Shown: positions 2,714 through 37,357 of the stretch, piece by piece
Numbering within the stretch: the first letter of the stretch is position 1
Layout: the number at the start of each line of letters is the position of its first letter
Made by a program: the position numbers and the translations under genes
The notes under the pieces: generated by a model
What the model was told of the DNA's origin: nothing
The model's input: the letters and a program-made list of their open reading frames with translations, nothing else
The model's database searches: none
Assembly: GCA_037441385.1 (NCBI GenBank)
Contig: JBBISH010000058.1
Location: forward strand, 1 to 38,496
Reading direction: 5' to 3'
Length of the DNA stretch: 38,496 bases
From: Myxococcales bacterium
GTDB lineage: Bacteria > Myxococcota_A > UBA9042

Positions 2714-2788
2714 GCGAACCTCGCAAAGGGTCTCGGCCGGGGAGCGGCAGGGGATCGTCAGGCGGAACACGAGTGGGCCAGCCCACCA

Positions 2789-3544: not shown

Positions 3545-3600
3545 GGTTCTAGGTCCTTTGGTCCGCCGCTCCGCCTGGAGCGACCGTCCAGCGGGTTACG

Positions 3601-5724: not shown

Positions 5725-5897
5725 GGTGCCTCGTGTGGCGCAGATTTGCGGGCGGTGCGGCGATCGGCTCGCTGCCGCCAAGCCATCGGCAAGGTGGAGT
5801 AGTCCGCCCTGCCGCGAAGTTGGCGCTGCAGCGTGTCGCCAAACTTCGCTGAATCATTTGCTTCTTTTCGAGACACACCTGGGGCGGCCTCGGCAGA

Positions 5898-8843: not shown

Positions 8844-8883
8844 CCCAGCGGGCGGTCGCCTGGCGTGCCGCACCGGAGTGGCC

Positions 8884-11190: not shown

Positions 11191-11450
11191 CCGGGCGCGG
11201 CGGCGCGCTTTATGCGCACCCCACCTGATTCACGCCGGTACGGTTTCTTTGACCCGTTCTGCAACTGCCGAGAATCAGGCGGAGACCCTGGGTTCAGGCC
11301 CGAAGAATTGCGCGAGTTTTCGATCCGATTCGGACGGAACCGGATTTACATTTCCTCGCAGTCGCCGGTCTGGCCAAAGCGGCCCCAAAATGCCAACGTG
11401 AAGAGACGTGCGTGCGTGTCCGCCCCTGGCGTGCGCCGGCAAGGAGTTTC

Positions 11451-17221: not shown

Positions 17222-18253
17222 ATGCAGAACAAGACGTACCGTGTGGCCGTGCTGGGCGCGACCGGCGCTGTGGGCCGCGAGATGTTGTCCGTGTTGGACG
17301 AGCAGCGCTTTCCAGCCAGCGAGGTGATCGCCCTGGCGTCGCCGCGATCGGTGGGCGAAGAGGTGGACTACGGCAACCGCACGCTGAAGGTGCGCGCCGC
17401 GACGCCCGAGGCCTTTGACGGCGTGGATCTGGTGCTGGCGTCGGCGGGATCGGCAGTGTCCAAGCAACTGCTGCCCGAGGCGGCGCGGCGCGGGGCGATG
17501 TGCATCGACAACTCGAGCGCTTTTCGCATGGTCGACGGTGTGCCGCTGGTGGTGCCCGAGGTGAACGCCGCGGCGATGGCCAAGCACAACGGCATCATCG
17601 CCAACCCGAATTGCTCGACGATCCAGATGGTGGTGGCGCTGGGGCCGCTGCACGAGCGCGCTGGGTTGAAGCGGGTGGTGGTGTCGACCTACCAGTCCGT
17701 GTCGGGCGCGGGCAAGAAGGGCATGGACGAGCTGAGCAGCCAGACCATCGCGCTGCTGAACCAGAAACCCTTTGATGTGGCCGTGCACCACGCGCGGATC
17801 GCCTTCAACGTGGTGCCGCACATTGGCAGTGCCAGCGAAGGCGGCTACACCGACGAAGAGTGGAAGCTGGTGTACGAAAGCCGCAAGATCATGGGCCTGC
17901 CCGACCTGGAAGTGGTGCCGACCTGCGTGCGGGTGCCGGTGTTCTGCGGCCACAGCGAGACGGTGTACTGCGAATTCGAGCGGCCGATCAGCGTGGCCGA
18001 GGCGCGCGAAATCTTTGGCACGGCCCACGGCGTCAAGCTGGTGGACGATCTGGCGAACAAGCTCTACCCGATGCCGCTGGACTGTGCCGAGACCGATCCG
18101 GTGTACGTGGGGCGCATCCGTCAAGACCCCAGCCGCAACAACGCCCTGAACCTGTGGGTGGTCGCCGACAACCTGCGCAAGGGCGCCGCCACCAACGCCG
18201 TGCAGATCGCCTGGCTCGCGGCCAAGACGGGCTTGGTTCACGGTGCCAAATAG
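17222..18253 (+). CDS. asd: Aspartate-semialdehyde dehydrogenase
   Basis: VAVLGATGAVG, IDNSSAFRM, IIANPNCST, STYQSVSGAG, CVRVPVFCGHSE and DNLRKGAATNAVQIA. Start at ATG 17222. Confidence 0.96.
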   Translation: MQNKTYRVAVLGATGAVGREMLSVLDEQRFPASEVIALASPRSVGEEVDYGNRTLKVRAATPEAFDGVDLVLASAGSAVSKQLLPEAARRGAMCIDNSSAFRMVDGVPLVVPEVNAAAMAKHNGIIANPNCSTIQMVVALGPLHERAGLKRVVVSTYQSVSGAGKKGMDELSSQTIALLNQKPFDVAVHHARIAFNVVPHIGSASEGGYTDEEWKLVYESRKIMGLPDLEVVPTCVRVPVFCGHSETVYCEFERPISVAEAREIFGTAHGVKLVDDLANKLYPMPLDCAETDPVYVGRIRQDPSRNNALNLWVVADNLRKGAATNAVQIAWLAAKTGLVHGAK

Positions 18254-18259
18254 CCGCTT

Positions 18260-18274
18260 GTGCCAAATTGGCAC
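18260..18274. promoter_or_regulatory. Palindrome GTGCCAAATTGGCAC, candidate upstream activator site for a sigma54 enhancer-binding protein
   Basis: Perfect 7-1-7 palindrome. The core TGCCA-N3-TGGCA starts 118 bp before a -24/-12 motif, and the same arrangement recurs at 22348. Confidence 0.55.
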
Positions 18275-18378
18275 GGGAAGCCGGTGCAGCAATGGTTGGC
18301 GTGACGCAGCAGGCTTCCGTTCTTGGTCGTGGTCGGCCAAAATTCCCGTCGCTGTGCGCCCTTGGCCGTTGCGGCATT

Positions 18379-18394
18379 TGGCACGACCCATGCA
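18379..18394 (+). promoter_or_regulatory. Sigma54 (-24/-12) promoter candidate
   Basis: TGGCACGACCCATGCA, with GG-N10-GC spacing. Confidence 0.6.
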
Positions 18395-18476
18395 GCAAGG
18401 GCGTGATGGGCGCGTCCAGGCGGCTTGGCTGCCGGAGTCGCCCCAAGAACGCAGGACTACGCCGAAGTTGGAAACC

Positions 18477-20252
18477 GTGCATAACAAAATTCTGAACGCC
18501 CGCGCCGGCTTGTGGCGCCTGTCCACGCTGATGTTGGCCGCCGCGAGCGTCCTGCTGCCGGCCAGCGCCTGGGCCATTCCCTACGTGCAGATCCAGAGCA
18601 TAGCCAAGTCGTCGGCCGGCGACTGGGATCCGCCCACGCGGCTGGGCCTGGGCACCAACACGCCGGGCAGCGCGACCGACCTCCACGTGGTCAACCGCGC
18701 GGACTGCTACGCGGTGATGGCGGCGAAGAACCCCAAGGTGACCATCACCTGGACGTGGTCGCCCAGTTCGGTGCTGACCACCACCTCGTATTCGGCAGTG
18801 ACCAAGGTGGCGCCAGCCGGCAAGAGCTGCCTGGAGTCGTCGCTGCAAGAGACCGACACGACCTCGGCCTGCATCGTCAACGCCCAGGTGGACTACAAAG
18901 TGGGCGCCTCGTACACCTTTGACGTGGACGTGCGCGACCTGATCGGTCGCACCGCCACTTGCGAAGAGGGCACGGAGCAGGACGCCACGGTCTACATCCT
19001 GGTCAACGACACCGCGACGACCGTTGGCGCCACGACCCAAGTGGTGGCGTTCAAGCTGCGCTTCCGCATCGACTTGGTCGGGCCTGCGGTGCCGACGATC
19101 AGCTCGATCACCGCCGGCAACAATAACCTGCGTGTTAGCTGGAGCCACGCCGACGAGACCACCGTGGCCGCGAGCTACGTGTACTGGGCCGACCTGCCGT
19201 TTGACGCTACGTCGGTCCGCGACGGCACGGTCACGGTGTCGAAGTCGAGCAAGCTGACGGCCAAAGAGTATCAAATCAAAGGCTTGACCAACGGCAAGAA
19301 GTACTACGTCGCCGTGACGGCCGCGGACGCCAACGAGAACGAGTCGAACCTGTCGCCGCTGAAAACGGCTTCGCCCATCCCGGTCTACGACGCCTGGCAG
19401 TACTACAAGAATGCGGGTGGCGAGGAAGAAGGCGGCTTTGCCCCGTGTTCGGCCCAGCCCGTGGCGGCTGGCCCCGGTTGGCTGTGGCTGCTGCTGGCGA
19501 GCGTGGCGGCGGTGTGGGCGCTGCGGCGGCGCAACACGGGGCTGGTGCTGGCGGTGTTGGCGATCGGGCTGCTGACGCAGGCGGGGCAAGCCCAGGCGGC
19601 CTCGCCGCAGACCGGGTCGTTGGATTTTCGCTTTTCGCGCTATCTGCCGCAGATCGACGAAGGCTTGACCGGCAAGGCCAAGCCCTACGCCGACATCTTT
19701 GGCGGCGCCGCCTGGCAGGTCTCGCTGGCGACCGACTCGCGGGTGTGGGACCGCTTTGGCACGCTCTCGCTGGGGCTGTCGGCCGGCTACTGGAGCCAGG
19801 ACGGCTACGGCCGCGAGCAGGCCACCAACAACTCGAGCTCGGACAAGACCTCCCTGTCGATCGTGCCGATCACCTTTGATGTTGTGTACCGCATGGACGA
19901 GCTGGAGCGCGCTTGGGGCGTGCCGTTCATTCCGTACGCCAAGCTGGGCTTGGTCTACGGCATTTGGTGGATGCGCGATGGCGTGGACAACCTGGCGCGC
20001 TGGACCGACGCCAATGGCAGCACCAAGGAGGCCATGGGCGGCACGGGCGGTTACCACGCCACCTTGGGCATGCGCTTCTTGCTGGACGTGCTGGAGCCGA
20101 TGGCCGCGCGCAGCTTTGACATCGAGATGGGCGTGAACCACAGCTACCTGTTCGCCGAGTATCAGATGCTGCGGCTGAACGACTTTGGCAGTAAGAAAAG
20201 CCTGAATTTGTCGGACGATCTATTCACGTTCGGCATCGCCTTTGACTACTGA
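18477..20252 (+). CDS. Fusion of an FN3-containing MYXO-CTERM-anchored protein (MXAN_2561-like) and an outer-membrane beta-barrel (MXAN_2562-like)
   Basis: Probable GTG start at 18477 with a signal peptide ending SAWA. FN3 motifs (LRVSWS, YQIKGLTNGKKYYVAVTAADANENES). Then YDAWQYYKNAGGEEEGGFAPCS-TM-RRR, a second signal peptide ending AQA, and a barrel (PFIPYAKLGLVY, GVNHSYLFAEY) ending FTFGIAFDY. Confidence 0.75.
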   Translation: MHNKILNARAGLWRLSTLMLAAASVLLPASAWAIPYVQIQSIAKSSAGDWDPPTRLGLGTNTPGSATDLHVVNRADCYAVMAAKNPKVTITWTWSPSSVLTTTSYSAVTKVAPAGKSCLESSLQETDTTSACIVNAQVDYKVGASYTFDVDVRDLIGRTATCEEGTEQDATVYILVNDTATTVGATTQVVAFKLRFRIDLVGPAVPTISSITAGNNNLRVSWSHADETTVAASYVYWADLPFDATSVRDGTVTVSKSSKLTAKEYQIKGLTNGKKYYVAVTAADANENESNLSPLKTASPIPVYDAWQYYKNAGGEEEGGFAPCSAQPVAAGPGWLWLLLASVAAVWALRRRNTGLVLAVLAIGLLTQAGQAQAASPQTGSLDFRFSRYLPQIDEGLTGKAKPYADIFGGAAWQVSLATDSRVWDRFGTLSLGLSAGYWSQDGYGREQATNNSSSDKTSLSIVPITFDVVYRMDELERAWGVPFIPYAKLGLVYGIWWMRDGVDNLARWTDANGSTKEAMGGTGGYHATLGMRFLLDVLEPMAARSFDIEMGVNHSYLFAEYQMLRLNDFGSKKSLNLSDDLFTFGIAFDY

Positions 20253-20262
20253 GCGACCGCCG

Positions 20263-21150
20263 ATGTCCGCCGAGCCCCTTGTGCTGACCGAGGGTGGCGC
20301 CTACCCGCCGCGATCCGTGCTGTTGCGGGTGATGTTCGATGGCGCCGCCTTTGCTGGATTCCAAAAGCAGCAAGACGGCATTCGCAGCGTGGCCGGCGTG
20401 GTCGAAGAGGCCTGGCTGGCCATGCTGGGCGAGGTCGTCATCGCCCGCGCCACCAGCCGCACCGATGCTGGGGTGCACGCGCGGCGGCTGCCCATCCTCA
20501 TCCGCACCCACAAAAACGTGGGCGCGCGCGGCCTGATGCTGGGCCTGAACGTGATCCTGCCCGAGGACTGCAAGATCGTCAGCGCCGAGGAGCTGCCGGT
20601 CGAGGCCGACGTGCGCTCGGACGCGGTGGGCAAGCGCTACGTGTACTACGTGCAGACGGGCCCGGCGCGCCTACCGCTGTGGCGAACGCGGGCGTGGTAC
20701 ATCAAGGCGCAGCTGGATCCGCAAAAGCTTTTGGCAGCGTGCCAGATGCTGGAAGGCATTCACGACTTTGCTGCCTTTCGCTCGGTGAACTGTTCGGCGC
20801 AGTCGACCTCGCGCAACATCTTGCAGGTGCGGCCGCAGGTCATCGACGAGTGCGGCGCGCAGAAGGTCTGGGCGATCACCGTGGAAGGCAACGCCTTCTT
20901 GCACAACATGGTGCGGATCATGGCCGGTACGGTGGTGGACATCGCCCGCGGCCGCAAGACCCTGGACCAGCTGGCGCACGCGCTGAAGTCGGGTGAGCGC
21001 ACCAGCGCCGGCCAGACCGCGCCGCCGCACGCGCTGGTGCTGGATGACGTATTCTTTGGCCCTTGGGGAGCGCGGCAGGGGCAGAACTACAAGGATCTGC
21101 TGAAGAACATGGCAGAAATCCGCGACGGAGTGCCCGAGTCCGCTCAATAG
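20263..21150 (+). CDS. truA: tRNA pseudouridine(38-40) synthase TruA
   Basis: FDGAAFAGFQKQ, SRTDAGVHA, GIHDFAAF, GNAFLHNMVRIMAG and TAPPHAL. Confidence 0.93.
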   Translation: MSAEPLVLTEGGAYPPRSVLLRVMFDGAAFAGFQKQQDGIRSVAGVVEEAWLAMLGEVVIARATSRTDAGVHARRLPILIRTHKNVGARGLMLGLNVILPEDCKIVSAEELPVEADVRSDAVGKRYVYYVQTGPARLPLWRTRAWYIKAQLDPQKLLAACQMLEGIHDFAAFRSVNCSAQSTSRNILQVRPQVIDECGAQKVWAITVEGNAFLHNMVRIMAGTVVDIARGRKTLDQLAHALKSGERTSAGQTAPPHALVLDDVFFGPWGARQGQNYKDLLKNMAEIRDGVPESAQ

Positions 21151-22232: not shown

Positions 22233-22347
22233 GGCAAAGCCTCGCGGGCGGCACCCAACTGGCCAACCCCTGCCAAGCAGCATAGCCGAGCCGCGATCGC
22301 CGCGCAAAACTCACGCCAGCGGGCAAGGGCAGAAATGCACAGAGGTT

Positions 22348-22481: not shown

Positions 22482-22543
22482 TCAACCTGGGTGTAGCGGC
22501 GCTCAGGTTGGTGTCCGCAACCGTCGTGCTCGGGAGCTCTGGA

Positions 22544-23566
22544 ATGGAAACCCTGCTGAAACGCCACTTCTGGGCGATCAACCTAGTCGGCTTGGCGGTC
22601 ATCGCCTGGCTGGCGGCCGGATCGCTCAACGCGCTGATTGGCGTCCAGTTGTCCAAGGCTTCGCGCAGCGACGACAAGCCGCAAATCGCCGCAGCCGCAG
22701 GCGAATCGACGCTGACCAAGCGCCTGCGCGACGGCCGCCTGAAGGAAGAGTCGGGCGCGGTCATGTCGGGGCGGTCGATGTTCGAGATCCCCGAGCCCGA
22801 GGTGCCGCAAGAACCCGAAGAGCAAGGCGAAGGCGGCACCGATGGCGAAGGCAAGGAAGCGCCGCCGCCCGAGCCGACCCTGGAGCCCACCTCGTTGCCC
22901 ATCAAATTGCTTGGGACCATGGTCGTGGCGCCCGAGGCGTGGTCCAGCGCCAGCGTGGAGATCGACAAGAACCCGCAGAAGATCGTCAACGTGGGCATGG
23001 AGCTGCTGGACGGCAAGGCGACCGTGTACGCCGTGCGCCGCAACTACTTGGTCCTGAACGAGAGTGGCAAGCTGACCGTGGCGCCGCTGTACCCCAAAGA
23101 CGCCGCGGCCGGTGCCGATCCGGCCAATCCAGGTGCGCCTGGTACGCCGCCGAACCCCGGTGCCAACCTGCCTGGACCGCGCCCGGCTCCGCCGCGTACC
23201 AGCGATGCCGGCACTCCCGATGCGCCCGGCGTCAAGCGCCTGGCCGACGGCGCCTACCAGCTGGACCGCAACCACGTGAACGAAAAGCTAAAGGATGTAA
23301 CCCAGCTGGGAACCCAGGTGCGGATCGTGCCGAACTACCACGGCGGCAAGTACGAGGGTTTTCGGATGATCGGCATGAGCTCGGGCAGCCTGTTTTCGGA
23401 CATCGGCTTTGCCAACGGCGACGTGGTGCAGGCGGTCAACGGCGACAAGATCGACAGCCCGAACAAGGCCTTGGCCCTCTACGAGGCCCTGAAGAACAAG
23501 GCGCGGCTGACCGTGCTCATCGAGCGCGACGGGCAGCCTAAGACCTTGCGCTACACGATTCGATAG
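22544..23566 (+). CDS. gspC: Type II secretion protein GspC (HR + PDZ)
   Basis: N-terminal TM (METLLKRHFWAINLVGL..), HR domain IKLLGTMVV, and PDZ RIVPNYHGGKYEGFRM..GDVVQAVNG..IERDGQPKTLRY. First gene of the gsp operon. Confidence 0.88.
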   Translation: METLLKRHFWAINLVGLAVIAWLAAGSLNALIGVQLSKASRSDDKPQIAAAAGESTLTKRLRDGRLKEESGAVMSGRSMFEIPEPEVPQEPEEQGEGGTDGEGKEAPPPEPTLEPTSLPIKLLGTMVVAPEAWSSASVEIDKNPQKIVNVGMELLDGKATVYAVRRNYLVLNESGKLTVAPLYPKDAAAGADPANPGAPGTPPNPGANLPGPRPAPPRTSDAGTPDAPGVKRLADGAYQLDRNHVNEKLKDVTQLGTQVRIVPNYHGGKYEGFRMIGMSSGSLFSDIGFANGDVVQAVNGDKIDSPNKALALYEALKNKARLTVLIERDGQPKTLRYTIR

Positions 23567-23614
23567 GCGCGGGAACAAACCGGCATGGGGAGCCCGCAAG
23601 GTAAGGAGTTCGCT

Positions 23615-26600
23615 TTGAATTTGCATGGAAAACTGCGTATGACTCGGCGCCTGGCGCCGTTGGCCGCGACCCTGGTGGTGGCGGGCCTGGTTGCCCTGGG
23701 GCCCGCCTTGGCCCAAGAGCCGCCCGCGGGTGGCCGTCCGGCTCCGGGTCGCCCCACGCCCGCCAGCCCCGAGGCCAAGCCCGACGCTGGCGGCGACCGC
23801 GAAATCCCCGCGGGAGGTGGCACGGGCCGGCTGAGCAAGGGTAAGAAAGACGGCGAGTTGAAGGCTGGTGGCGAGGGCTCGGGCGTGCTGAAGCGCAAGG
23901 GTTCGAGCAAGCTGGACCCCGAATTCGATCCCGCCGCTGGCGGCAAGAAGGGCAAGCCCGACGACGGTCCGGCCGATCCCGGCGGGTTGCCGCCGCGCGC
24001 CCCGGGCAAAGACGATGCGGCCGGTGGCGGCGGTGGTGGGTCGCTGGACGACGACCTGAAGAAGTTGGACGACGTTGTTACGATCAAGAACAATTTCAGT
24101 GATATCAAGTGCAAGCGCCTACCGCTGAACGCCAAGGTGTCGGTCGACTTCCAAGACGCACCGCTGGAGGCCGTCACCAAGCTGATGAGCTGCTGGCTGG
24201 ATCGCAACTTTGTGGTCGCCACCCAGAAGCGCGGCGCCAAAGTGACGATCCTGTCGCCGCAGCGCGTGTCGGTGTACGAGGCCTATCGCGCGTTCTTGTC
24301 GTCGCTGGCCGTCAACGCCCTGACCATCACCAAGAAAGGCGCCTTTCACTACATCGTCGACTCGCCGGACGCGCGCAGTTCGGGCGCGCAAGTGCTTGGC
24401 CCCAAAGGCGCGGTTCCGGACGAGGACAACATCGTCACCCGCCTGATTCGCCTCAAGCACATCGACGTCAAAGACGCCGAGGCGCTGGCAGGCAAGTTCA
24501 AGTCGAAGTCGGGCGATGTGTTTGTGTACGGGCCGACCAACACCCTGATCGTCACGGACTCGGGCAGCAACATCCGCCAGCTCATGCGGCTTTTGGCCGA
24601 GGTCGACGTACCGCTGGGTACCGACAAGATCTTCATCCGGCCGGTGCAGCACATGGACGCGGGCGAGTTGGTCGAGAAGATTACCGCGATCTTTGGCGAA
24701 GGCGGCGGCGGCGGCGGTGGCGGTGGCGGCGGTCGTGGTCCGGCGCCAGCGGGCGGCGGCGGTGGCCAGGTCGGTGCGTCGGCGGGCTCGTCGTCGGCGG
24801 CCAAGGTCACCTTGACCAAGGTGGTGGCGGACGACCGCAGCAACCAGATCATCGTCATCTGCACCCGCAGCAACTACCTGAAAGTAGACGCTCTGATCCG
24901 CAAGCTGGACGTGCCGATCCCCGGCGAGGGCGCGATCCACATCCACCACCTGGAGAACGCCGACGCCGAGGACGTGTCGCAGACCCTGAGCTCGCTAACC
25001 GGCGGCGGCAGCGGCGGCGGCGGCGGCAGCAAGAGCAGTGGCAGCAAGAGCAGCGGCAGCAAAAGCAGCGGCAGCAAGGGCGGCGGCGGCGGTGGCGGCG
25101 GTTCGGCCAGCCTGTTCGAAGGCAGCGTGAAGATCACCGCACACAAGGCCACGAACTCGCTGGTGATCGAGTCGTCGCTGAAGGACTACGTGGCGCTGCA
25201 GAAGGTCATCGCGGAGCTGGACCGCAAGCGCAAGCAGGTCTACGTGGAAGCCGTGGTGATGGAGATCTCGACAAGCAAGAACCGCAAGACCCAGCTCGCG
25301 GGTTCGGCTGGCACCACCTTTGACATCGGCGGCGACACCGTGCCACTGCTGTTTGGCCTGGGCGGCCTGGGCATGTCGGGCGTGAGCCTGCAGCAGCTGA
25401 ATTCGGGCGGTTTTGCCGCAGGTATGCAGGGTCCGCTGCTGAACGTGAACGCCGGCAATACCGGCAGTTCGTCCGTCGCCGCGGGCGTGACGCTGTCGAT
25501 TCCGGCCTTTGGCTTCTTGGTGCAGGCCATCCAAGAGAACAGCGACGTCAACGTGCTGAGCACGCCGCACATCCTGACGCTGAATAACGAAGACGCTGAG
25601 ATCACCGTGGGTCGCAAGATCCCGTACCGCTCGCAGTCGATGGGCGGCCTGGGCGGACTGGGCATGTTAGGCGGCATGGGCTCCATGGGCATTCCGGGCA
25701 TGGCCGGCGGTCTGGGCGGTTTGGGCGCGCTGGGCGGTCTGGGCTCGATGATGGGCGGCATGATGGGCGGCATGGTCCAGTTCCTGGACGTGGACATGAC
25801 CCTGAAGATCACGCCGCAGATCAACGAGTCGGACTACATCAAGCTGAAGATCGACGAGAGCCTGAACGAAGTGGAAGGCATCGATCCCAACCTGGGGCCC
25901 ACCACCAGCAAGCGCAAGGTGAACAACACCGTGGTGGTGCGCGACCAGCAGCCGGTGGTGATCGGCGGCCTGGTCACCGACCGCGAGTCGACCGGTGTGG
26001 CCAAGATCCCGGTGCTGGGCGACCTGCCGCTCATCGGCATGCTGTTCCGCAAGAACAGCACGATGATCGAAAAGAAGAACCTGCTGCTGATCATCGTGCC
26101 GCACATCATCAAGGATGCCAGCGACTTGCAGCGCATGCACGAGAACAAGATGGAGCAGATCCGCCAGTTCGTCGACGAGCTGGCGACCAAGCAGAAGGAG
26201 TACCAAGGCAAGGTCGACTACCGCAAGAAGACGGGCTTTTTGGAGACGGTGTTCAAGGCGGTGGACAAGTCGGCCGAGGAGCGAAAGATGCTCGAGAAGG
26301 CCTACTTCGACAACCAGGACGTGGACAAAGTGGGCTCGCCCGACGGCCACGACCTGGAGTACGACCCCAACAAGGCCAAGAAGAGCGACAAGAGCAAGGC
26401 CGGCGACGACGACGATGAGGACGGCCCGCCGGTGGAGGTGCTGGAGCTGCCCGACGCCGACAAAGCCGACAAGGCCGACAAAGCCGGCGACAAGGCTGGA
26501 GAAAAGCCGGCAGACAAGGCCGGCGACAAGGCCGGCGAACCCAAGGCCGACGCCAAAGACGCGGGCAAGGACGCGGGCAAGGACGCTCCGGCTGGCGAGG

Positions 26601-26688
26601 CCAAGGCGGCCAGCGACAAGCCGGCCAAGGCCGACAAGGCTGGCAAACCGGTCAAGGGCAAGAAGGGCAAGAAGCACAAGGGGATCAA

Positions 26689-26692
<4 letters not shown>
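23615..26692 (+). CDS. gspD: Type II secretion secretin GspD
   Basis: N0 VDFQDAPLEAV, N-domain repeats (TNTLIVTD, DDRSNQIIV, TNSLVI) and secretin core QVYVEAVVME, VLSTPHILTLNNEDAEITVG, LKITPQIN, KIPVLGDLPLIGMLFR. Start uncertain: TTG 23615 follows AAGGAG; alternatives are 23585 and 23639. Confidence 0.93.
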
Positions 26693-28437
<1,745 letters not shown>

Positions 28438-28455
28438 CAGGAGAGCTGAGGAAAG

Positions 28456-29721
28456 ATGCCAGTTTACGAGTACATCGGCAAAGACGCCAACGGGCGCACC
28501 GTCAAGGGGACGCTCGACGTGGAAGGCGTGCGCGGGCTGAAGGCTGCGCTGCGCCGCGACAAGGTGTTTTTGACCGAGTACCGCGAGGCAGGCGCCAAGA
28601 GCGGCAAAGGCCAGAAGGTCAAGGCCGGCCAGCAGCAGAAAACCGGCTCGCGCGATGTGGATTTTGGCGAGATGCTCACGCGGATCAGCCCGCAGGACAT
28701 CAGCGAATTTACTCGGCAATTGGCGACGCTGCTGAAGGCGAGCGTGCCGCTGGTCGACGCGCTGGCGGCGGTGGTCGAGCAGCTCGAGAACCCAAAGCTC
28801 AAGCGCGTGGTGGCGCAAGTCCGCACCGACGTGAACGAAGGCGCGCCGTTCTGGCGGGCGCTGAGCGTGCACGACAAGGTCTTCGAGAACACTTACTACA
28901 ACATGGCGCGCGCCGGCGAGTCGTCTGGCAACCTGGACGTGGTGCTGCAGCGGCTGGCGGATTTTACCGAAAGCCAAGTTAAATTGCGGAATAAGATCAT
29001 CGGTGCCCTGACTTATCCAGTGATCATGCTGTGCATCTCGTTCGCCATCGTCACGGGCATGATGGTCTTTGTGGTGCCCAACATCACGGCCATGTTCGCC
29101 GACCTGGGCGCGGAGCTGCCGCTCATCACCAAGATCCTGATCGCCATCAGCAAGCTGTTCACCACCTTCTGGTGGGCCGGGTTGTTGCTGGTGGTGGGCG
29201 TGTCGCGGGCGTTCTTGAAGTGGAAAAGCAGCGAGAAGGGCGAAGAGACGCTGGATCGCTGGCTGCTGAAGGCCCCCGTGATGGGCGACCTGATGCGCAA
29301 GATCGCCATCGCGCGGTTTTCGCGGACGCTGTCGACGCTGCTCAGCTCGGGCGTGCCGCTGCTGACGGCGCTGGAGATCGTCGAGAACGTGGTGGCGAAC
29401 AAGATCTTGGCCAAGGTGGTGGCCGAAGCGCGCGGCGCGATCCGCGAGGGCGACAACATCGCCGGGCCGCTGAAGCGCTCGGGGCAATTCCCGCCGATGG
29501 TGGTGCACATGGTGGCCATTGGCGAGCGGTCGGGCGAGCTGGAAGAGATGCTCCGCAACGTGAGCGAGTCGTACGAGAATCAGGTGGATACGCGGGTGCA
29601 GGCGCTGACCAGCCTGCTGGAACCGCTGATGATCGTGTTCATGGGCCTGGTGGTGGGCTTCTTGGTGGCGGCGATCTTGCTGCCGATGATGAAGCTGACC
29701 CAGGCCGTTCAACAGGGCTAG
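28456..29721 (+). CDS. gspF: Type II secretion inner-membrane platform protein GspF
   Basis: FTRQLATLL, AGESSGNLDVVLQRLADF, ALTYP, GERSGELEEML and LLEP. Confidence 0.95.
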   Translation: MPVYEYIGKDANGRTVKGTLDVEGVRGLKAALRRDKVFLTEYREAGAKSGKGQKVKAGQQQKTGSRDVDFGEMLTRISPQDISEFTRQLATLLKASVPLVDALAAVVEQLENPKLKRVVAQVRTDVNEGAPFWRALSVHDKVFENTYYNMARAGESSGNLDVVLQRLADFTESQVKLRNKIIGALTYPVIMLCISFAIVTGMMVFVVPNITAMFADLGAELPLITKILIAISKLFTTFWWAGLLLVVGVSRAFLKWKSSEKGEETLDRWLLKAPVMGDLMRKIAIARFSRTLSTLLSSGVPLLTALEIVENVVANKILAKVVAEARGAIREGDNIAGPLKRSGQFPPMVVHMVAIGERSGELEEMLRNVSESYENQVDTRVQALTSLLEPLMIVFMGLVVGFLVAAILLPMMKLTQAVQQG

Positions 29722-29739
29722 GACGACCAGGAGGGTGCG

Positions 29740-30153
29740 ATGAAGGTGCAAGAACTGGAGAAGATGGTGGCCGAAGTTCGCAAAGGCGAGCGTGGCATGA
29801 CGCTGATCGAAATCATGGTGGTGATCGTCATCATCGGCGTGCTGGGCTCGGCGCTGGCCTACGGCGTGATGGGCGCCCTGGGCGAGGCCAAGGAAGACAC
29901 CTGCAAGGCGCAGATCGCCAACGTGGGCCAGATCGTCGAGGCGCACGAAGCGCGCAACGGCGACTATCCGTCAAGCCTGCAAGAACTGGCTGAGGGCAAG
30001 AAGGCCAAGCTGAAGCCCGAGAACCTGAAGGATCCGTGGAAGAAAGAGCTGCAATACCAGGCCAGCGGCGAGGGCTTTACCCTGTGCTCGGGCGGCTCGG
30101 ACAAGAAGATCGGCACCGAGGACGACATCTGCTACGGCGGCAAGGGGCACTAA
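29740..30153 (+). CDS. gspG: Major pseudopilin GspG
   Basis: Prepilin motif ERG|MTLIEIMVVIVIIG, plus YPSSL, KDPW and GTEDDI. Confidence 0.88.
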   Translation: MKVQELEKMVAEVRKGERGMTLIEIMVVIVIIGVLGSALAYGVMGALGEAKEDTCKAQIANVGQIVEAHEARNGDYPSSLQELAEGKKAKLKPENLKDPWKKELQYQASGEGFTLCSGGSDKKIGTEDDICYGGKGH

Positions 30154-30543
30154 GTGAGCGAAGTGGCGCCACGACCCGCCTGGGGCAAGAGGGTGGCCTG
30201 GCTTGTAGGGCTGGGGTTCCCCGTCGTGCTGGTTGCGCTCTTCCTTGGGTACGGCGTTTCCGGATGCCTGTGCGCATCCAAGGAGGAGACCGCCAAGGCC
30301 CAGGTGGCCGGCGTGGGACAGATCCTCGCGCAGTTCAAGGAGAAAACCGGCAGCTATCCCGCGAGCCTGCACGTGCTGGCGGACGGGCGCAAAGCGAAGC
30401 TCAAGCCGGAGAACCTGCGCGATCCGTGGCGGCAAGAGTTGGAGTATCGGTTGACGACAGCGGGTTTTGAGTTGTGCTCGGCCGGGCCGGATACCGACGC
30501 GGGCACGGTGGATGATGTTTGCTACGGTCGCGAGGTGCGCTAG
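30154..30543 (+). CDS. GspG paralog lacking the canonical prepilin motif; possible lipobox VSGC
   Basis: The C-terminal 84 aa align without gaps to GspG (48 identities by hand count). The N-terminus is unrelated. Confidence 0.75.
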   Translation: MSEVAPRPAWGKRVAWLVGLGFPVVLVALFLGYGVSGCLCASKEETAKAQVAGVGQILAQFKEKTGSYPASLHVLADGRKAKLKPENLRDPWRQELEYRLTTAGFELCSAGPDTDAGTVDDVCYGREVR

Positions 30544-31146
30544 GTGTTGAAGAGATCCCAAGGCTTTACGCTCATCGAGCTCATCGTCGTCGTGGCGGTG
30601 ATGATGGCGGTGACGTTGGCGGTGGCCACGGGGATCAACAACATCCGCGGGGCGTCGGCGCAGGCCGAAGCGGGCAAGGTGGCGACGGCGGTGCGCTACC
30701 TCTACAACCTGGCCGTGGTGTCGGGGCGCAACCAGCGGCTGGTGATCGACCTGGATACGCGGACTTGGTGGGGCGAGGGCCAGACCAGCGACGATCCGTG
30801 CCAGGGCTTTTTGCTGCCGGGCGACAACCAGGACGAGGGCACCGACGAGCAGCTGAAGAAAACCGGCGGCTTCGAGGCCAGCAAGACCACGCTGCTGCAG
30901 AAGAACGAGCTGGACAAGGGCGTGAAATTCGCCGGGGTGCTGACCAGCCACGACGACCAGCCGGTGGAAAAGGGGCAGGCGTTCATCAACTTCTTCCCCA
31001 ACGGCACCACCGAGCACGCGCTGATTCAGCTGAACGCGGAAGATGACTGGAACACTGTGGAAGTGTTCGCCTTGCAGGGCACCGCCAAGGTCCACGCCGG
31101 CAAGGTGGAGTTCGACGAGCTCAAGCGCGACAAAGAAGAACGGTAG
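30544..31146 (+). CDS. gspH: Minor pseudopilin GspH
   Basis: SQG|FTLIELIVVV, C-terminal FINFFPNGTTE, and gene position. Confidence 0.8.
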   Translation: MLKRSQGFTLIELIVVVAVMMAVTLAVATGINNIRGASAQAEAGKVATAVRYLYNLAVVSGRNQRLVIDLDTRTWWGEGQTSDDPCQGFLLPGDNQDEGTDEQLKKTGGFEASKTTLLQKNELDKGVKFAGVLTSHDDQPVEKGQAFINFFPNGTTEHALIQLNAEDDWNTVEVFALQGTAKVHAGKVEFDELKRDKEER

Positions 31147-31147
31147 T

Positions 31148-32065
31148 ATGCAAAGGAGGAGCGGACGGGTGCAAAAACGGAGTGCCGGCTTTACGTTGCT
31201 CGAGGTGTTGGTCGCCATGGCCCTGCTGGCCTTTGCGTTGACCATCATCGCCGGTAGCGCCTCGTCGTCGGCCAACTACAGCAAGCGCGTCTATCGCTCG
31301 ACCGTGGCGGCGCTGCTGCTACGTGGAACCCTGCTGGATATCGAAGAAAAGTACCGCAAAGACGGCTTCCCGACCAACGATCTGACCGGCCGCGACTGCG
31401 AGCTGCCCAAGGCCTATGCCAAGCAGTTCAAGTGCCGCTACGACCTGCTGGGCCTGAACTTGGACGAGGGCTCGATCTCGGGCATGACTGAGCAGGCGCA
31501 GTCGATGCTGACCAAGGCGCAAGAAACGCTGGCGCAGTCGGGCGCGTTGGACAAGTTATCGGGTGATAACAAAGGTGGCGGCTCCAAGCCGATGGCCAGC
31601 GATCTAGGCAAGTCGGCCGAGCAGGCGCAAAACGCCGGCATGGACCTGGGCGCGATCGCCAAGGGCACCGACCTGATGGGCCTGCTTCAGGTGATCCTGC
31701 TGTCCGGTCAACAGGGCATGAACCTGCTGGATCTGTGCGACATCAACATCGCCGTGTTGCAGATGTCGATGGGCCTGGTGATCAGCAACCTGCTGCCGAT
31801 GGTGCTCAAGCGCGCCAGCGACCGGACCCGCAAGGTGGTGGTGCACCTGCAGTGGAAGGATGAGGAAGGCGAGAACCGCACTCTGGACATGGAGACGTTT
31901 ACCACCGCGGTGAGTCAGGAGGAGGCCGAGGCGATCCGCAACCTGCAGAAGCAGGAGAAGGTGCAGAACGCGCTGGATCCGACGGGTGCGGGCGGCGTTC
32001 CGGGCATGCCCCCAGGCGGTCTGCTGGGCGGTATGGGCGGCATGGGCGGCGGGGTGAAGCGATGA
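31148..32065 (+). CDS. gspI: Minor pseudopilin GspI (extended, about 305 aa)
   Basis: SAG|FTLLEVLVAMALLA, RKVVVHLQW and gene position. Start at ATG 31148 (alternative GTG 31169). Confidence 0.78.
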   Translation: MQRRSGRVQKRSAGFTLLEVLVAMALLAFALTIIAGSASSSANYSKRVYRSTVAALLLRGTLLDIEEKYRKDGFPTNDLTGRDCELPKAYAKQFKCRYDLLGLNLDEGSISGMTEQAQSMLTKAQETLAQSGALDKLSGDNKGGGSKPMASDLGKSAEQAQNAGMDLGAIAKGTDLMGLLQVILLSGQQGMNLLDLCDINIAVLQMSMGLVISNLLPMVLKRASDRTRKVVVHLQWKDEEGENRTLDMETFTTAVSQEEAEAIRNLQKQEKVQNALDPTGAGGVPGMPPGGLLGGMGGMGGGVKR

Positions 32066-33369
32066 CCCCCTTCTGCCGCGCCATCGTGGGAGCCCAGCCG
32101 CTGAAGCAGCGGGCTATCATGACGCCGTCCCTCTACAGGGACGGCTTGGTATCTACTTGTGTAGACTCGGGTTTGTCGGGTCTGGTGCCGGATCGCAGGG
32201 CGCTCGGTGGGACGGAACCTGACGTCGGCGGAGGCCGACGGCGCTATGATAGCCCGCCCTTTCAAGGGCCGGGCACTCCCACGTTTGCCCAGCATGGTTG
32301 CGAACTTGGCCGAATCCGTGCTGACGTCGTGGGAGCCCAGCCGCTGAAGCGGCGGGCTAGCATGACGCCGTCCCTCTCCAGGGACGGCTTGGTATCTGCT
32401 GGTGCGGACTCGGGTTTTATCCCACGCAAACCCAACAACCAAGCCGGCTTCACCCTCATCGAGATCCTGGTGGCGGTGGGACTGCTCGCGGTTTTGGGCG
32501 TGATCCTGGCGACGTCGACGGCGTCGCTGATCGGCGCGATCCGCGACAACCGCCAGAGCCAGGAGTACTACCACGCGGCGCGGGTGGCGCTGGGGCGCAT
32601 GGACAACGAGATCGCCATGGCCTACCTGAGCAAGCACCAGAGCGACCTGAAGACCACCAAGACGGTGTTCGTCGGCAAGCAGAACTCGCTCACGTTCGCG
32701 ACGATCGGCCACCGGCGCATGGTCCGCGAAGCGCGCGAGAGCGACGAAGCGGTGGTGGAGTACAAGCTGGAAAAGGACAGCAAAACCGGCGACTCGATCC
32801 TGGTGCGCCGCGAGAAGCCGCTGATCGACGACCAGCCCTTCAAGGGCGGCCGCAAGCAGGTGCTGGCCTGGGGCGTCAAGAAATTGACCTTTGCCTACTG
32901 GGATATGGACAAGGAGTCCTGGCAGTCGGACTGGAAGGTCGAGATCGACAACGCCAAAGAAGAAGAGATGAAGAAGGCCCAGGCGGCGGCAGGCGTGGCG
33001 GCGGTGACCGGCAACGCGGCGCTGGGCTCGGCGCTGGCGTCGAACATGGCGAATCAAGAGCAGACCCACGGCCCGCAGGACCTGTGGCTGCCGGCGCGGG
33101 TCAAGGTCACGCTGGTGCTGGCGACCGAAGAGGGCGAGCTGACCTTTGAGACCCAGGCGCGGATTCGCCTGCAGCAGCCGTTGAACCTGGGCGGCATCCA
33201 TGTGCCCAAGCCCTTTGAGAATTCGCTGAATCCGTACGCAGCCATGCCGGGCCAGACGCCGGGCAATTTCAGCGTGCCGGGCGCAGGCGGCATGGGCGGC
33301 GCTCTGCCGGGCAACCCTATGATGCCGCGGCCGAATCCGGGCATGGGCATGCCGGGAGGTGGACGATGA
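32062..33369 (+). CDS. gspJ: Minor pseudopilin GspJ with a repeat-derived 129-aa leader
   Basis: QAG|FTLIEILVAV (cleavage between 32448 and 32449), VKKLTFAYWD..WQSDW and LPARVKVTL. The ATG overlaps the gspI stop (ATGA). Alternative start at 32362. Confidence 0.82.
   Translation: MTPFCRAIVGAQPLKQRAIMTPSLYRDGLVSTCVDSGLSGLVPDRRALGGTEPDVGGGRRRYDSPPFQGPGTPTFAQHGCELGRIRADVVGAQPLKRRASMTPSLSRDGLVSAGADSGFIPRKPNNQAGFTLIEILVAVGLLAVLGVILATSTASLIGAIRDNRQSQEYYHAARVALGRMDNEIAMAYLSKHQSDLKTTKTVFVGKQNSLTFATIGHRRMVREARESDEAVVEYKLEKDSKTGDSILVRREKPLIDDQPFKGGRKQVLAWGVKKLTFAYWDMDKESWQSDWKVEIDNAKEEEMKKAQAAAGVAAVTGNAALGSALASNMANQEQTHGPQDLWLPARVKVTLVLATEEGELTFETQARIRLQQPLNLGGIHVPKPFENSLNPYAAMPGQTPGNFSVPGAGGMGGALPGNPMMPRPNPGMGMPGGGR
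32084..32417. mobile_element. REP/REPIN- or MITE-like palindromic repeat cluster inside the 5' end of gspJ
   Basis: 91-bp direct repeats at 32084-32174 and 32327-32417 (7 differences), an inverted partial copy at 32237-32283, and hairpins such as GCCGTCCCT-N4-AGGGACGGC. Confidence 0.75.
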
Positions 33370-34655
33370 GCACGCCCGCGGCGACTTGGAAGCTGGGCGC
33401 GCGTCTGGCCGAGGCAGTGCGGGCGGGGCTGCGCGCGACCGGCCAGGGCTCGGCGGGACCGACCGACCGCCAGCGCGGGGTGGCGCTGCTGCTGGCGATG
33501 GCGTCGATCGCGATCCTGACGATCTTTTCGCTCGAGTTCACCTACACTTCGCGAGTGGCGGTCAAGACGTCGAGCTACGTGGAAGCCGAGGTGGAGGCGC
33601 ACCTGCACGCGCGCGCGGCAGTGGAGCTGGCGGCGATGGTGATCGGCAGCAACGATCTGGTCGAGAAGATGATCGCCCAGTACTCGCAGATGCTGGCCGG
33701 CAAGAAGCCCAACATCAGCATCGGCGCCTATGCCTGCGAATTCGTCAACGCCTTCTGCAAGGGCGAGATGACGCTGATGGGCCTGCAGCTGGTGAACCTG
33801 GAAGGGCATCCTGCGGTGGGTCTGAAGCGCGGTACCTGCGGCTGCCAGTCCGGCGACGACGACGGCCGGGTCAACATCAACCGGGTCAACGACTTGAACC
33901 AGAAGCAGGCGGTGTTCGACACCCTGTACAAGCTGCTGGAACGCAACGAGGGCATGACCCGGCCGGGCGAGATCGACAAGGACATGGCGCAGTTGGCGCT
34001 CAACGTCATCGACTGGGCCGACAAGGACACGCTGAAGACGGACATCGATCCCAACAGCAAGAAGCTGGTCGAGGGTTCGGGCGCCGAGGGCTCGGGCTAT
34101 GCGCGCAGCAACATGAAGGTCAAGGACGCGCCCTTTGACACCACCGAGGAAGTGCGGCTGGTGCAGGGCATGAACGACAAGCTGTGGTGCAAGCTGAAGA
34201 ACCAGCTGACGGTCTACAACACCGAGAAGCTGAACGTGAACACCGCGCCGATCGAGGTGATCAAGGCGCTGATTTGCAAGAATCTGGCCAATCCGATGAA
34301 CGAGCAGATCGCGTGTGCGCGCGGGATGCAGGGCAGCGGTCAAGAGATGTTCGTGCCGGTCAACGTGGCCGGGCAGTACATCGAGGTGTGCCGCACCTTG
34401 AAAAAGATGTTGTTCTCGCCGCCGTTTGCCAACCCGGGCCGGTTCGTCAATTTCTTTGACAAGCTGGGGACGGTGGTGCCGGCGGACTATGCAAAAGTCT
34501 TGGCAATCAACCAAGGCCGCATGCTCGAGGACGTGGGAACGAGCGGCAAGATCGTCCGCATCCAGGCCTACGGCACCAGCGGCAAGGTGCAGCGGCGCAT
34601 CACCGCGCTGCTCGACACCACCTCGCAGCGCTACGTGTACTGGCGCGAAGACTAG
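33366..34655 (+). CDS. gspK: Minor pseudopilin GspK
   Basis: QRG|VALLLAM (no E5, as expected for GspK), DDGRVNIN, NVIDWAD, PFDTTEEVRLVQGM and LNVNTAP. Confidence 0.9.
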   Translation: MSTPAATWKLGARLAEAVRAGLRATGQGSAGPTDRQRGVALLLAMASIAILTIFSLEFTYTSRVAVKTSSYVEAEVEAHLHARAAVELAAMVIGSNDLVEKMIAQYSQMLAGKKPNISIGAYACEFVNAFCKGEMTLMGLQLVNLEGHPAVGLKRGTCGCQSGDDDGRVNINRVNDLNQKQAVFDTLYKLLERNEGMTRPGEIDKDMAQLALNVIDWADKDTLKTDIDPNSKKLVEGSGAEGSGYARSNMKVKDAPFDTTEEVRLVQGMNDKLWCKLKNQLTVYNTEKLNVNTAPIEVIKALICKNLANPMNEQIACARGMQGSGQEMFVPVNVAGQYIEVCRTLKKMLFSPPFANPGRFVNFFDKLGTVVPADYAKVLAINQGRMLEDVGTSGKIVRIQAYGTSGKVQRRITALLDTTSQRYVYWRED

Positions 34656-34673
34656 CGGAAGGGGACGGAGCGA

Positions 34674-36686
34674 ATGGCTCACAGAATCCTGGGTTTGGAC
34701 ATTGGGACGCGGGCGATCCGCCTGGCGATTGCCGACAAGTCGCTGCGGCAGACGGCGCTGACCGGCTGGGACGAAGAGCCGGTGGCGGCGCCCGATCCCG
34801 AGCAGGCGGCGCATCATCGGCACGCGCTGTTTTCGCCCGAGCAGGCGGCGGCCGTGCAGACCCTGCTGCTGCGCAACCAGCGACCCGACGACGTGGTGGC
34901 CGTGGCCATGCCCGCGACCTACGTGATGCACCGCGTGCTCGCGTTCCCGTTCCGCGACGACCAGGCCATCGCCGAAGCGGTGGGATTTGAACTTGAAAAT
35001 CACATTCCGACGCCCATCAGCGACGTGATCGTCGACTTTGTGCGGCTGGGCGAAAAAGAGGGACAGACCGAGGTGTTGGCGCTGGCGGCGCCGCGCGACA
35101 TCGTCACCAAGCACATCGACGCGTACAAAGAGCTGGGGATCGAGGCGCGGCGGCTGGGCCTGCAGTCGCTGGCGTTCGCGCACCTGGTCCGCAAGCTGCC
35201 CGACGCCAAGGACGGCGTGACGCTGCTCGTCGATGTGGGCACGCGCTCGTCGGAAGTGCTGGTGTGCCAAGATGGCAAAACCCAGATGTTGCGCAGCTTT
35301 GCCGTGGGTGGCCAGACCGTCGCCGAGCTGTTCGGCAGCCTGGTCCAAAGCGACCTGCAGCCCGCCGACCTGCTGCGCGGCCATGCGCAATTGCTGCCCG
35401 ACGAAGCGCTAGAGAGCGAGCAAGAACGCGGGCTGGCGCTGGCAACCCGCCAAGCGGTGCAACCGCTGCTGCGCGAACTGCGCCTGACGCTGGCCAACTG
35501 GCAGCGGCGCTCGCACAAGAAGCCCGACCGGATCCTGCTGACGGGCTGGCTGGCCGAGCTGGGCGGCATCCACGAGTTCGTGGAGCGGGCGCTGGACGTG
35601 CCGGTGCAGGCGATTGCCTTGGGCAACATGCCCGACGTGCGCCTGGCCAGTGCCCACAGCCTGGGCGATCGCGGCGCGCTGGCCGTGGCGTTGGCTCTGG
35701 CGGCGGCGGATACCGAAGAGAGCGGCGACGTCGATTTTCGCCAGGGCGAGCTGGCTTACGAAGGCGATTTCAAGGTGCTGCGCCAGCGCCTGCCGCAGCT
35801 GGTCGCGTTCATCGTGGTGGCCCTGTGCCTGCTGGGGATCCGCGCGAGCCTGAACTACCGGGCGCTGGTCATCGAGCAGGAGCAGCAACTGGCGATTCTG
35901 CAGGCGCTTTCTAAACAGCTGACCGGCAAGGCCTCGACCGACTTTGAGACGGTGCGCAAGGAATTGGCGCGCGAGCCGGCCGTGGACATGGCGGCGTTGT
36001 ATCCCGATATCAGCGCCTTCAAGGTGCTGGAAGATGTGTCCAGCATCTTGGACAAAGTGACCGAGCCGCCGGACTTCAAGCCGCCGGGCGGCCCCGAAGA
36101 AGAGGCTGCGCCCCAGCCCGACACGCCGACGCCACCGCCCGGAATGGTGGTCCCGCCTGGGGTTACGGGGATTCCGGCGCACCGCCTGCCCACCGTTGAC
36201 GCGGTTCGGCGGCCGCCGCGTGGCGCGGGGCACGGTCGCGGCGGTCCCGGCGCTGGCGACGACTCGGCCAGTGAAGCCAAACCGTCGGCTGCGCTTCCGG
36301 GGGGAGCGCCGCCGGCTGGGCCCGCCAGCCCCGATGGGGCGGCCAAGGACGAGGCGAAGGGGCGCGATCCCTCAGAGCCTTTTACGGGGCACAAAGTCGA
36401 GCTGTCGGCGGTGCAGATCGAGCGCGGCCGCGGCACGTTGCGCGGCGACGCCGACACCCAGGACGCCATCCTGGCGCTGCAGCAGGCGGTAGACGCCCAC
36501 AAGTGCTTTTCCAAGGTGAAGTCGAGCTCGGACCGCATCACCTTTGAACGGCACCGCGACTGGTTCAAGTTCACGCTGGAATTCGAGATTGCCTGCCCCG
36601 TCGAGGCCGAGAAGGCCAAGAAAGACAAGGCCGCCAAGGGCGACGCCGAGGCCGACAAGACCGACGCGGAAGGGGAAGAGAAATGA
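34674..36686 (+). CDS. gspL: Type II secretion protein GspL (PilM-like cytoplasmic domain, TM, periplasmic domain)
   Basis: ILGLDIGTRAIR, FELENHIP, LLVDVG, ILLTG, VDFRQGELAY, a TM segment and a ferredoxin-like C-terminus. Confidence 0.85.
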   Translation: MAHRILGLDIGTRAIRLAIADKSLRQTALTGWDEEPVAAPDPEQAAHHRHALFSPEQAAAVQTLLLRNQRPDDVVAVAMPATYVMHRVLAFPFRDDQAIAEAVGFELENHIPTPISDVIVDFVRLGEKEGQTEVLALAAPRDIVTKHIDAYKELGIEARRLGLQSLAFAHLVRKLPDAKDGVTLLVDVGTRSSEVLVCQDGKTQMLRSFAVGGQTVAELFGSLVQSDLQPADLLRGHAQLLPDEALESEQERGLALATRQAVQPLLRELRLTLANWQRRSHKKPDRILLTGWLAELGGIHEFVERALDVPVQAIALGNMPDVRLASAHSLGDRGALAVALALAAADTEESGDVDFRQGELAYEGDFKVLRQRLPQLVAFIVVALCLLGIRASLNYRALVIEQEQQLAILQALSKQLTGKASTDFETVRKELAREPAVDMAALYPDISAFKVLEDVSSILDKVTEPPDFKPPGGPEEEAAPQPDTPTPPPGMVVPPGVTGIPAHRLPTVDAVRRPPRGAGHGRGGPGAGDDSASEAKPSAALPGGAPPAGPASPDGAAKDEAKGRDPSEPFTGHKVELSAVQIERGRGTLRGDADTQDAILALQQAVDAHKCFSKVKSSSDRITFERHRDWFKFTLEFEIACPVEAEKAKKDKAAKGDAEADKTDAEGEEK

Positions 36687-37357
36687 GCCTGATGGCCTCG
36701 AAATTGGGCAGGCTCGGCGCGGCTTTTGAGCGCATGAGCGATCGCGAGCGCAAGCTGGTGCTGGGCGGCATCGCGGTGATGACGCTGATCGGCCTGGTGC
36801 TGGTGGCCGTGCTGGTGTCGCGGCGGGTCAGCGCGCTGGAAGAAGAAGTCCAGGGCAACGAGGCGGCGCTCAAGGACATTTCGGCGGCGGCGCCGCGCTA
36901 CCTGGCCCTGCGCGAAGAAGAAAAGAGCGTGGCCGACCAGCTGGATCGCGCCGCCAAAGAGCCGCTGCAGGCCACGGTCTTGGCGATCGCCAAGGAGATC
37001 AAGTACCAGGCCAAGGATGCCGAGGGCGGCGAGGCCGAGACGCGGCTGGCGGATGTGATCAAATTTGCCAATGCGTCGGACATCTTGGCCGAGCTGACCA
37101 CCAAGGCGGCCAAGAAGGTCCAAAAGCCCAAGACCAAGAAGAAGAAGGGCGGCAAAGAGGTGTTCTTGTCGACCATCGACGCCGTGTTCCAGAATGTGCC
37201 GGACGACGCCGTGCTGCGCTTCTTGTCCAAACTGGAGACGCATCCCGAGCCGATGTTTGGCCTGACGGTGGAGATCACCCGCACCGGGCCGACGCGCGAT
37301 CAGATGCAAGCGACGATCAAGATTGGGCAATTTCGGTACGGGCAGCTCGAGGAGTAG
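36683..37357 (+). CDS. gspM: Type II secretion protein GspM
   Basis: FERMSDRERKLV followed by a TM, and LRFLSKLE. Position after gspL. Confidence 0.8.
   Translation: MSLMASKLGRLGAAFERMSDRERKLVLGGIAVMTLIGLVLVAVLVSRRVSALEEEVQGNEAALKDISAAAPRYLALREEEKSVADQLDRAAKEPLQATVLAIAKEIKYQAKDAEGGEAETRLADVIKFANASDILAELTTKAAKKVQKPKTKKKKGGKEVFLSTIDAVFQNVPDDAVLRFLSKLETHPEPMFGLTVEITRTGPTRDQMQATIKIGQFRYGQLEE

Follow-up and report, generated by a model that had tools for sequence, protein, structure and literature searches.

The MYXO-CTERM sorting tag normally stands at the C-terminus of the proteins carrying it, and a gene in which such a tag lies in the middle and runs into a second signal peptide and an outer-membrane β-barrel raises the question of how many proteins it makes and how they are exported. 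Such a gene occurs in the window analyzed here, a stretch of 38,496 nucleotides from a Myxococcales bacterium (assembly GCA_037441385.1, contig JBBISH010000058.1). The gene starts with GTG and consists of a single open frame with no interruption; its homologue P0003 starts at the same codon. All of the parts that a sequence-only reading of this DNA had placed within one uninterrupted frame were recovered (Table 1), and 239 residues follow the internal tag. The N half contains cysteines at residues 77, 118, 132, and 162, of which C118, C132, and C162 are invariant in 57 aligned rows. The predicted mature barrel begins with ASPQTG and ends with FTFGIAFDY, its last residue being aromatic (Tyr). 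Promoter- or terminator-like sites were found nowhere in 18200-21300.

Table 1. Parts of the fused gene, its genomic context, and internal tags elsewhere in the same genome (coordinates without a contig label refer to the window).
Feature	Coordinates	Strand	Remarks
Fused ORF: SgmI/MXAN_2561-like surface protein, hairpin, and MXAN_2562-family barrel	18477..20252	+	591 aa
First Sec signal peptide, aa 1-33, end SAWA	18477..18575	+	by eye; helix 6-25 in model
SgmI-like body: four-Cys β-sandwich and FN3 domain	18576..19430	+	NF045522, PF00041, fold matches
Internal MYXO-CTERM-like tag: GGFAPC, Cys324 at 19446, first helix, RRR (GGFAPCS...WLWLLLASVAAVWAL-RRR)	19431..19532	+	TIGR03901 below cut-off; conservation
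Second, internal Sec signal peptide: RRR as n-region, AQA site end 19598 (NTGLVLAVLAIGLLTQAGQAQA, 19533-19598; hydrophobic core 19542-19574)	19524..19598	+	Ala conservation; helix 356-366
8-stranded outer-membrane β-barrel, MXAN_2562 family	19599..20252	+	NF040596; model strands aa 380-590; fold matches
Type II secretion cluster: gspC, D, E, F, pseudopilins, J, K, L, M-like	22541..37357	+	family matches; context, not part of gene
TSP3-repeat protein, tag, signal peptide, TraB-like barrel	C164:7627-11304	-	L154; cut by contig end
PKD/NHL protein, tag, multiheme cytochrome	C20:2918-11125	-	
Cys-rich tagged protein, small lipoprotein DUF4266, lipobox	C20:41976-43223	+	L159
Tag, lipobox, β-propeller	C98:16612-19632	-	
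MXAN_6640-type protease, tag, lipobox, unnamed lipoprotein	C99:16484-19729	-	
Tag, lipobox, unnamed lipoprotein	C187:562-4221	+	
Eighth internal tag, then 151 residues, no second signal, GC3 0.54	C4:83779-86421	-	L160

Of the three family models proposed for the two halves, that of the MXAN_2562 barrel (NF040596) passed its cut-off, with 221.7 bits against 100 over residues 380-591 (NCBIfam), whereas the other two remained below theirs. The MXAN_2561/SgmI model (NF045522, NCBIfam) is the top family for the N half but reached 103.6 bits against 150 (E 1e-29, residues 55-353), and the MYXO-CTERM model (TIGR03901) reached 15.8-16.5 bits against 20 (residues 324-352). On these scores, the N half is classed as SgmI-like and is not filed as a member of the MXAN_2561 family. 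It has the FN3 domain, the sorting tag, and the place upstream of a barrel that characterize that family, and the Pfam fn3 model (PF00041) matched residues 208-286 with 25.7 bits against a cut-off of 25 when the N half was scanned alone. The hallmarks of MYXO-CTERM, i.e., an invariant Cys, a hydrophobic helix, and an Arg cluster, were present in 57/57 fusions. The second signal, judged by pattern, has a basic n-region, a short hydrophobic core of ~11 residues, and small residues at -3/-1; it lies inside the protein and has no start codon of its own. A structure model built from the alignment of 57 fusions (mean pLDDT 86.4, mostly >90 in the barrel) shows two β-sandwiches, helices at residues 334-350 and 356-366, and eight barrel strands from residue 380. 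The modeled barrel resembles NspA (Z 15.3, rmsd 2.8, 153 aligned), OprF (14.7), and OmpW (14.2), and the N half matches FN3-type folds with Z 12-13; an earlier, weak fold (12 rows, pLDDT 65.5) gave only FN3-type PDB matches among those listed. The barrel region (19599-20252) also weakly matches the Bd0486 family (E 1e-7), which is possibly its Bdellovibrio counterpart.

The first issue is whether the fusion exists at all. The source genome is a 221-contig assembly, and another internal tag of the same genome, on contig C4, looks like a read-through; one could therefore suspect that the stop was lost through an error in sequencing or assembly, or that a non-functional read-through arose recently. 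We give this explanation next to no probability, and the surveys of homologues, loci, and same-family genomes effectively refute an assembly error. The protein search returned 13 matches among 7,999 scored candidates, i.e., the query itself, 11 full-length homologues at 44-85% identity, all keeping the junction, and one distant fusion. A quick tree of 145 barrels places the window's gene in a clade with support 95, in which 35/35 rows are fused at 35-85% identity, and fusions also occur in G013 and G176, genomes of another family that each consist of a single contig. In the other genomes of the same family, the barrel lies in a frame of 594-757 aa in 23/23 cases, and the seven whose sequences were checked are all fused. 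A contig assembled from run X1, which may be a source of the same DNA, covers the whole stretch with zero differences at a depth of 12.9; run X2 does not cover the junction. In a phylum sample of 301 genomes, the barrel was found in 242, and the survey of fused and split forms that the sequence-only reading had called for demonstrated a conserved fusion: of the 107 loci, the best 80 comprise 33 fused ones, 46 split ones, and one without an N-half match.

The conservation pattern of the linker gives an indication of what is maintained in these fusions. Its length varies from 47 to 84 aa, with the frame open every time, and identity across the 57 fusions, all of which keep two hydrophobic segments flanking a basic cluster, is as low as 28% in its first helical segment and 21% in its second. 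Within it, Cys324 is invariant (57/57) while neighboring positions vary, Arg350-352 are 84-93% conserved, and the signal-peptidase site retains Ala372 (-3) in 86% and Ala374 (-1) in 93% of the fusions. A small-x-Ala motif occurs in register, one residue before the conserved Ser of the barrel, in 47/57 fusions compared to a mean of 7.8 and a maximum of 16 in 500 shuffles, a contrast that the test overstates because related genomes are non-independent samples. An earlier junction pattern had failed on 3/34 junctions, and the 57-row alignment covers those three. This pattern indicates that both the tag and the second signal are under selection while the remaining linker drifts. It agrees with the earlier proposal that RRR serves as the tail of the tag and as the n-region of an internal signal peptide, both signals being conserved.

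The second debatable issue is whether the barrel is translated separately. An in-frame GTG, TTG, or ATG occurs near the junction in 47/61 fused loci, and the barrel might be made mainly from such an internal start, for instance GTG 19512, the long frame being incidental. However, upstream of the second helix, only 2/61 fused loci have a start codon preceded by a ribosome site, compared to 75/81 split loci (seven duplicate rows were left out; the test relies on Shine-Dalgarno sites, so that initiation independent of them would escape it). Within 22 codons before the second helix, 14/61 fused loci contain no such codon at all, and the codon positions are not conserved. GTG 19512 itself, which the sequence-only reading had singled out as a possible sole start of the barrel, lacks a ribosome site, and it is not conserved either. 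Moreover, a barrel with its own start would leave no constraint that holds the frame open across linkers of such varying length. A separately initiated barrel is highly unlikely on these grounds, and the barrel of the fusions has lost its own start. The arrangement of the split loci suggests how this could happen. There, the tag is located at the true C-terminus of the upstream gene in 79/81 cases by pattern (63 with the Cys-helix-basic pattern and 16 with a CFI-box; two were unmatched), and the barrel start overlaps the upstream stop, at -4 in 62/80 and at -1 in 9/80. With the genes arranged in this way, one frameshift in the basic tail would be enough to fuse them with both signals intact.

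The distribution of the fusion does not correspond to a single event. Among the 150 barrel matches listed (there are 105 further ones), 126 lie outside the window's family, and 63 of these, including all 38 with a frame of at least 500 aa, were examined. Fusions were found in 26 of the 63, in at least 12 other families, the two single-contig cases included. On the quick tree, the split state changes 11 times, and at least four of the changes are forced by well-supported branches. A single clade of fusions was rejected with p-AU 1.6e-57 for all 31 fusions and 2.7e-13 for the 22 MYXO-type ones (thinned set of 62 rows, with two long-branch fusions left out). These results show that fusion, fission, or transfer has occurred repeatedly, whichever the direction of change. 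A different tag is present in 11/26 of the outside-family fusions, and all seven tested passed the CFI-box-CTERM cut-off. On SgmI-like proteins, fused as well as split, the tag is MYXO-CTERM in some and CFI-box-CTERM in others (L118, L123, L128, L129, L135, L138, L141-L145), which suggests that the two tags are interchangeable. Six barrels from records titled Enterobacteriaceae or Klebsiella (L011, L015, L023, L025, L029, L032) nest inside the Myxococcota-type fused clade; the titles of these records are probably wrong.

The genome contains the machinery that the two signals would need. It encodes a myxosortase (NF040914, 108.6 bits against a cut-off of 100), 22 MYXO-CTERM tags over the cut-off, two signal peptidases I, BamA, and a type II secretion system (T2SS), whose cluster begins 2.3 kb downstream of the fused gene. 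Among the best 80 of 107 loci, gspC/gspD lies within 5 kb in 26/33 fused loci and in 0/47 others. Between truA and gspC, 31/33 fused loci contain a gene for a Cys-rich probable lipoprotein with no family match, located in the window at 21144-22307 (-). Elsewhere in the window, three lipoprotein-like paralogues in tandem, with choice-of-anchor D/Ig and PKD domains, occupy 6441-13673 (+), and 1754-5781 (-) encodes a barrel-like protein and a large Cys-rich lipoprotein, a pair which, by eye, we take to resemble outer-membrane components of gliding motility.

Considering these data together, the SgmI-barrel gene is a real, conserved, and repeatedly evolved fusion that most likely encodes a secreted polyprotein. 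We think it likely that one precursor is cut by signal peptidase I and myxosortase, in line with the sequence-only reading, with which all comparative tests were in accord. In the proposed mechanism, whose topology steps rest on established Sec topology, an in-frame fusion of overlapping sgmI-like and barrel genes would have created the single precursor. The first signal peptide would direct the FN3 half into the periplasm, and the tag helix would halt transfer in an N-out/C-in orientation, leaving RRR in the cytoplasm. RRR would then double as the n-region of the second helix, which, inserted N-in/C-out, would restart Sec export of the barrel. Signal peptidase I would cut after AQA (residue 374) and release a 24-kDa barrel into the periplasm for BAM. 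A myxosortase cut at Cys324 would yield a 31-kDa FN3 protein, probably lipid-anchored, for the T2SS, and a 5-kDa hairpin would be left over after both cuts. The two products would arise in a 1:1 stoichiometry and leave by different routes. The signal-peptidase cut is the firmest step of this scheme, because an uncut barrel could not reach the outer membrane: no more than five residues separate the AQA site from the first strand (residue 380), which would leave the barrel tied to the inner membrane.

The order passenger-linker-barrel recalls type V secretion, and the single-chain model reached a pTM of 0.73, a value that is no measure of binding between the halves; the chain might accordingly stay uncut, either autotransporter-like or tethered to the inner membrane. 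We regard this as very unlikely, since the inner membrane would retain a chain that has two hydrophobic helices with a basic loop, the fusions conserve the Ala-x-Ala site, the eight-stranded barrel matches NspA, OprF, and OmpW, and the halves are separate genes in 46/80 loci (best 80 of 107). Autotransporter barrels are 12-stranded, and eight strands are too small for passenger transport. A type V autotransporter was rejected as an assignment, the predicted barrel having eight strands and not 12, and no autotransporter family occurring among the NCBIfam/Pfam matches. It could also be considered that only signal peptidase I cuts the precursor. The barrel would then be freed, while the FN3 half would keep the whole hairpin (36 kDa), with the tag as a leftover stop-transfer helix, and either stay in the inner membrane or go to another protease. 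The tag scores below the TIGR03901 cut-off, the second helix next to it could hinder myxosortase, and uncut tag proteins are reported to be partly surface-displayed (PMC11980579). However, Cys324 is kept amid varying neighbors, and a plain stop-transfer helix would not need a Cys. This invariance argues for the myxosortase cut, and the peptidase-only scheme is unlikely, albeit the most probable of these alternatives. If both cuts occur, the two products would probably cooperate on the cell surface, as SgmI and MXAN_2562 apparently do in Myxococcus xanthus. By the same analogy, their function would probably be that of this pair, i.e., cell-surface attachment linked to pilus motility and development.

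The same joint was found elsewhere in the genome. The best 41 of 57 MYXO-CTERM matches comprise 28 terminal tags, five sequences that are not tags, and eight internal tags. In seven of the eight, the tag is directly followed by a second signal peptide, downstream of which GC3 is coding-like. Four of the seven joints have a lipobox and three, including that of the SgmI-barrel gene, an Ala-x-Ala site; no start codon with a ribosome site occurs in any of them. The eighth internal tag, on contig C4, is probably a lost stop, i.e., a negative case. The genome-specific tag HMM caught 2/7 of these internal tags and the pattern scan 5/7, so further cases may have been missed. The C164 fusion has the layout of MXAN_5598 but no OmpA match. 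The DUF4266 fusion recurs in 10/30 loci of its family (eight by pattern, two by eye), the others being free genes, and the window's genome also contains two free DUF4266 paralogues. The MXAN_6640-type gene is fused in 2/9 loci, and in one split locus it overlaps the lipoprotein gene by ATGA. Head to head with the cytochrome fusion lies the second signal peptidase I gene (C20:11407-12108, +), which may be dedicated to that joint. On the evidence of these genes, the joint is a recurrent cassette in this genome and not a one-off. A wider proposal, which we hold less firmly than the processing of the SgmI-barrel precursor but still favor, is that the hairpin serves Myxococcota in general as a functional polyprotein cassette. 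Any gene for a tagged surface protein that overlaps a gene for an exported protein could fuse with it by one frameshift, and myxosortase together with signal peptidase I or II would recut the partners for different routes (T2SS, BAM, lipoprotein, or cytochrome maturation). About one fifth of the tagged proteins of this genome (7/36) would be built in this way, and the SgmI-barrel pair would have been fused or split many times. The CFI-box tag would work in the same joint, so that CFI-box-CTERM would be a sorting signal that is cleaved and can take the place of MYXO-CTERM, and vice versa.

Should the cuts prove real, one precursor would supply two export machines at a fixed ratio, and annotation pipelines would be misnaming a whole class of Myxococcota envelope genes. 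Each fusion would also point to a functional partner, here a barrel for the poorly known motility protein SgmI, and the CFI-box tags would share the role of MYXO-CTERM. In bacteria, unlike in viruses, where they are typical, secreted polyproteins processed by housekeeping membrane proteases are rare. One bacterial example is the FbcH cytochrome b-c1 precursor of Bradyrhizobium japonicum, in which one gene yields two proteins, separated at an internal signal sequence that contains Ala-x-Ala; it involves one cut and inner-membrane respiratory subunits, with no sorting tag and no surface or outer-membrane products. In type V autotransporters, as in the window's gene, a passenger precedes a C-terminal barrel; unlike them, the window's gene has an eight-stranded barrel, an inner-membrane hairpin, and halves that are usually separate genes. 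The ArtA substrate of Haloferax volcanii, the downstream part of which is reportedly not exported via a second signal peptide, offers a further parallel. In this archaeal case, a tripartite C-terminal-type sorting signal is likewise processed in mid-protein, although the tag and the enzyme are different (J Bacteriol 2017).

The literature covered on tags, the SgmI gene pair, and polyproteins gave no account of the SgmI-barrel fusion or of its second signal peptide, which may still be mentioned in papers or supplements beyond that coverage; in the available text of the Haft preprint (10.1101/2023.06.07.544157), the words "fusion," "fused," "internal," and "polyprotein" are absent. What is already known, though missed by the sequence-only reading, is an internal tag before a barrel (PMC11980579), and the enzymes of the proposed chemistry are known ones. 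In MXAN_5598 of M. xanthus, an internal MYXO-CTERM precedes an outer-membrane barrel and an OmpA domain; gene fusion and processing of the N half were proposed, and internal tags were called rare (PMC11980579). MrtX cleavage was demonstrated in that work for terminal tags, the only ones in its myxosortase tests, and processing of the internal tag was proposed; in the text available, neither a second signal peptide nor a barrel route nor a test of them is given for MXAN_5598 (PMC11980579). The window's gene shares with MXAN_5598 the surface protein, internal MYXO-CTERM, and outer-membrane barrel in one ORF, whereas the partners there are TraA/TraB-like and not SgmI and MXAN_2562. The Corallococcus coralloides orthologue of MXAN_5598, located beside ftsZ, in agreement with the neighborhood described for MXAN_5598 (PMC11980579), has the tag, basic loop, second helix, and Ala-x-Ala of the window's joint, and matching long frames in five cultured relatives show the same elements. 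A second C. coralloides frame, of 3,399 aa (L201, G316:C1:5325318-5328944), carries a joint of tag, signal, and TraB-like barrel. The top tags checked in two of the five cultured relatives were terminal in 30/30 cases, which suggests that the cassette is rare there and common in the window's genome. Another close comparison is the SgmI/MXAN_2562 pair of M. xanthus, described in the sequence-only reading as separate adjacent genes and confirmed as such by the available text of a recent preprint (bioRxiv 10.64898/2026.08.28.747804). Insertions in sgmI and MXAN_2562 gave like fitness profiles, resembling those of EPS and LPS mutants, and a role in surface attachment linked to pilus motility and development was proposed for the two proteins (bioRxiv 10.64898/2026.08.28.747804). 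The window presents the same two families in the same order but, unlike M. xanthus with its two genes, in one gene, the N half of which falls below the family cut-off.
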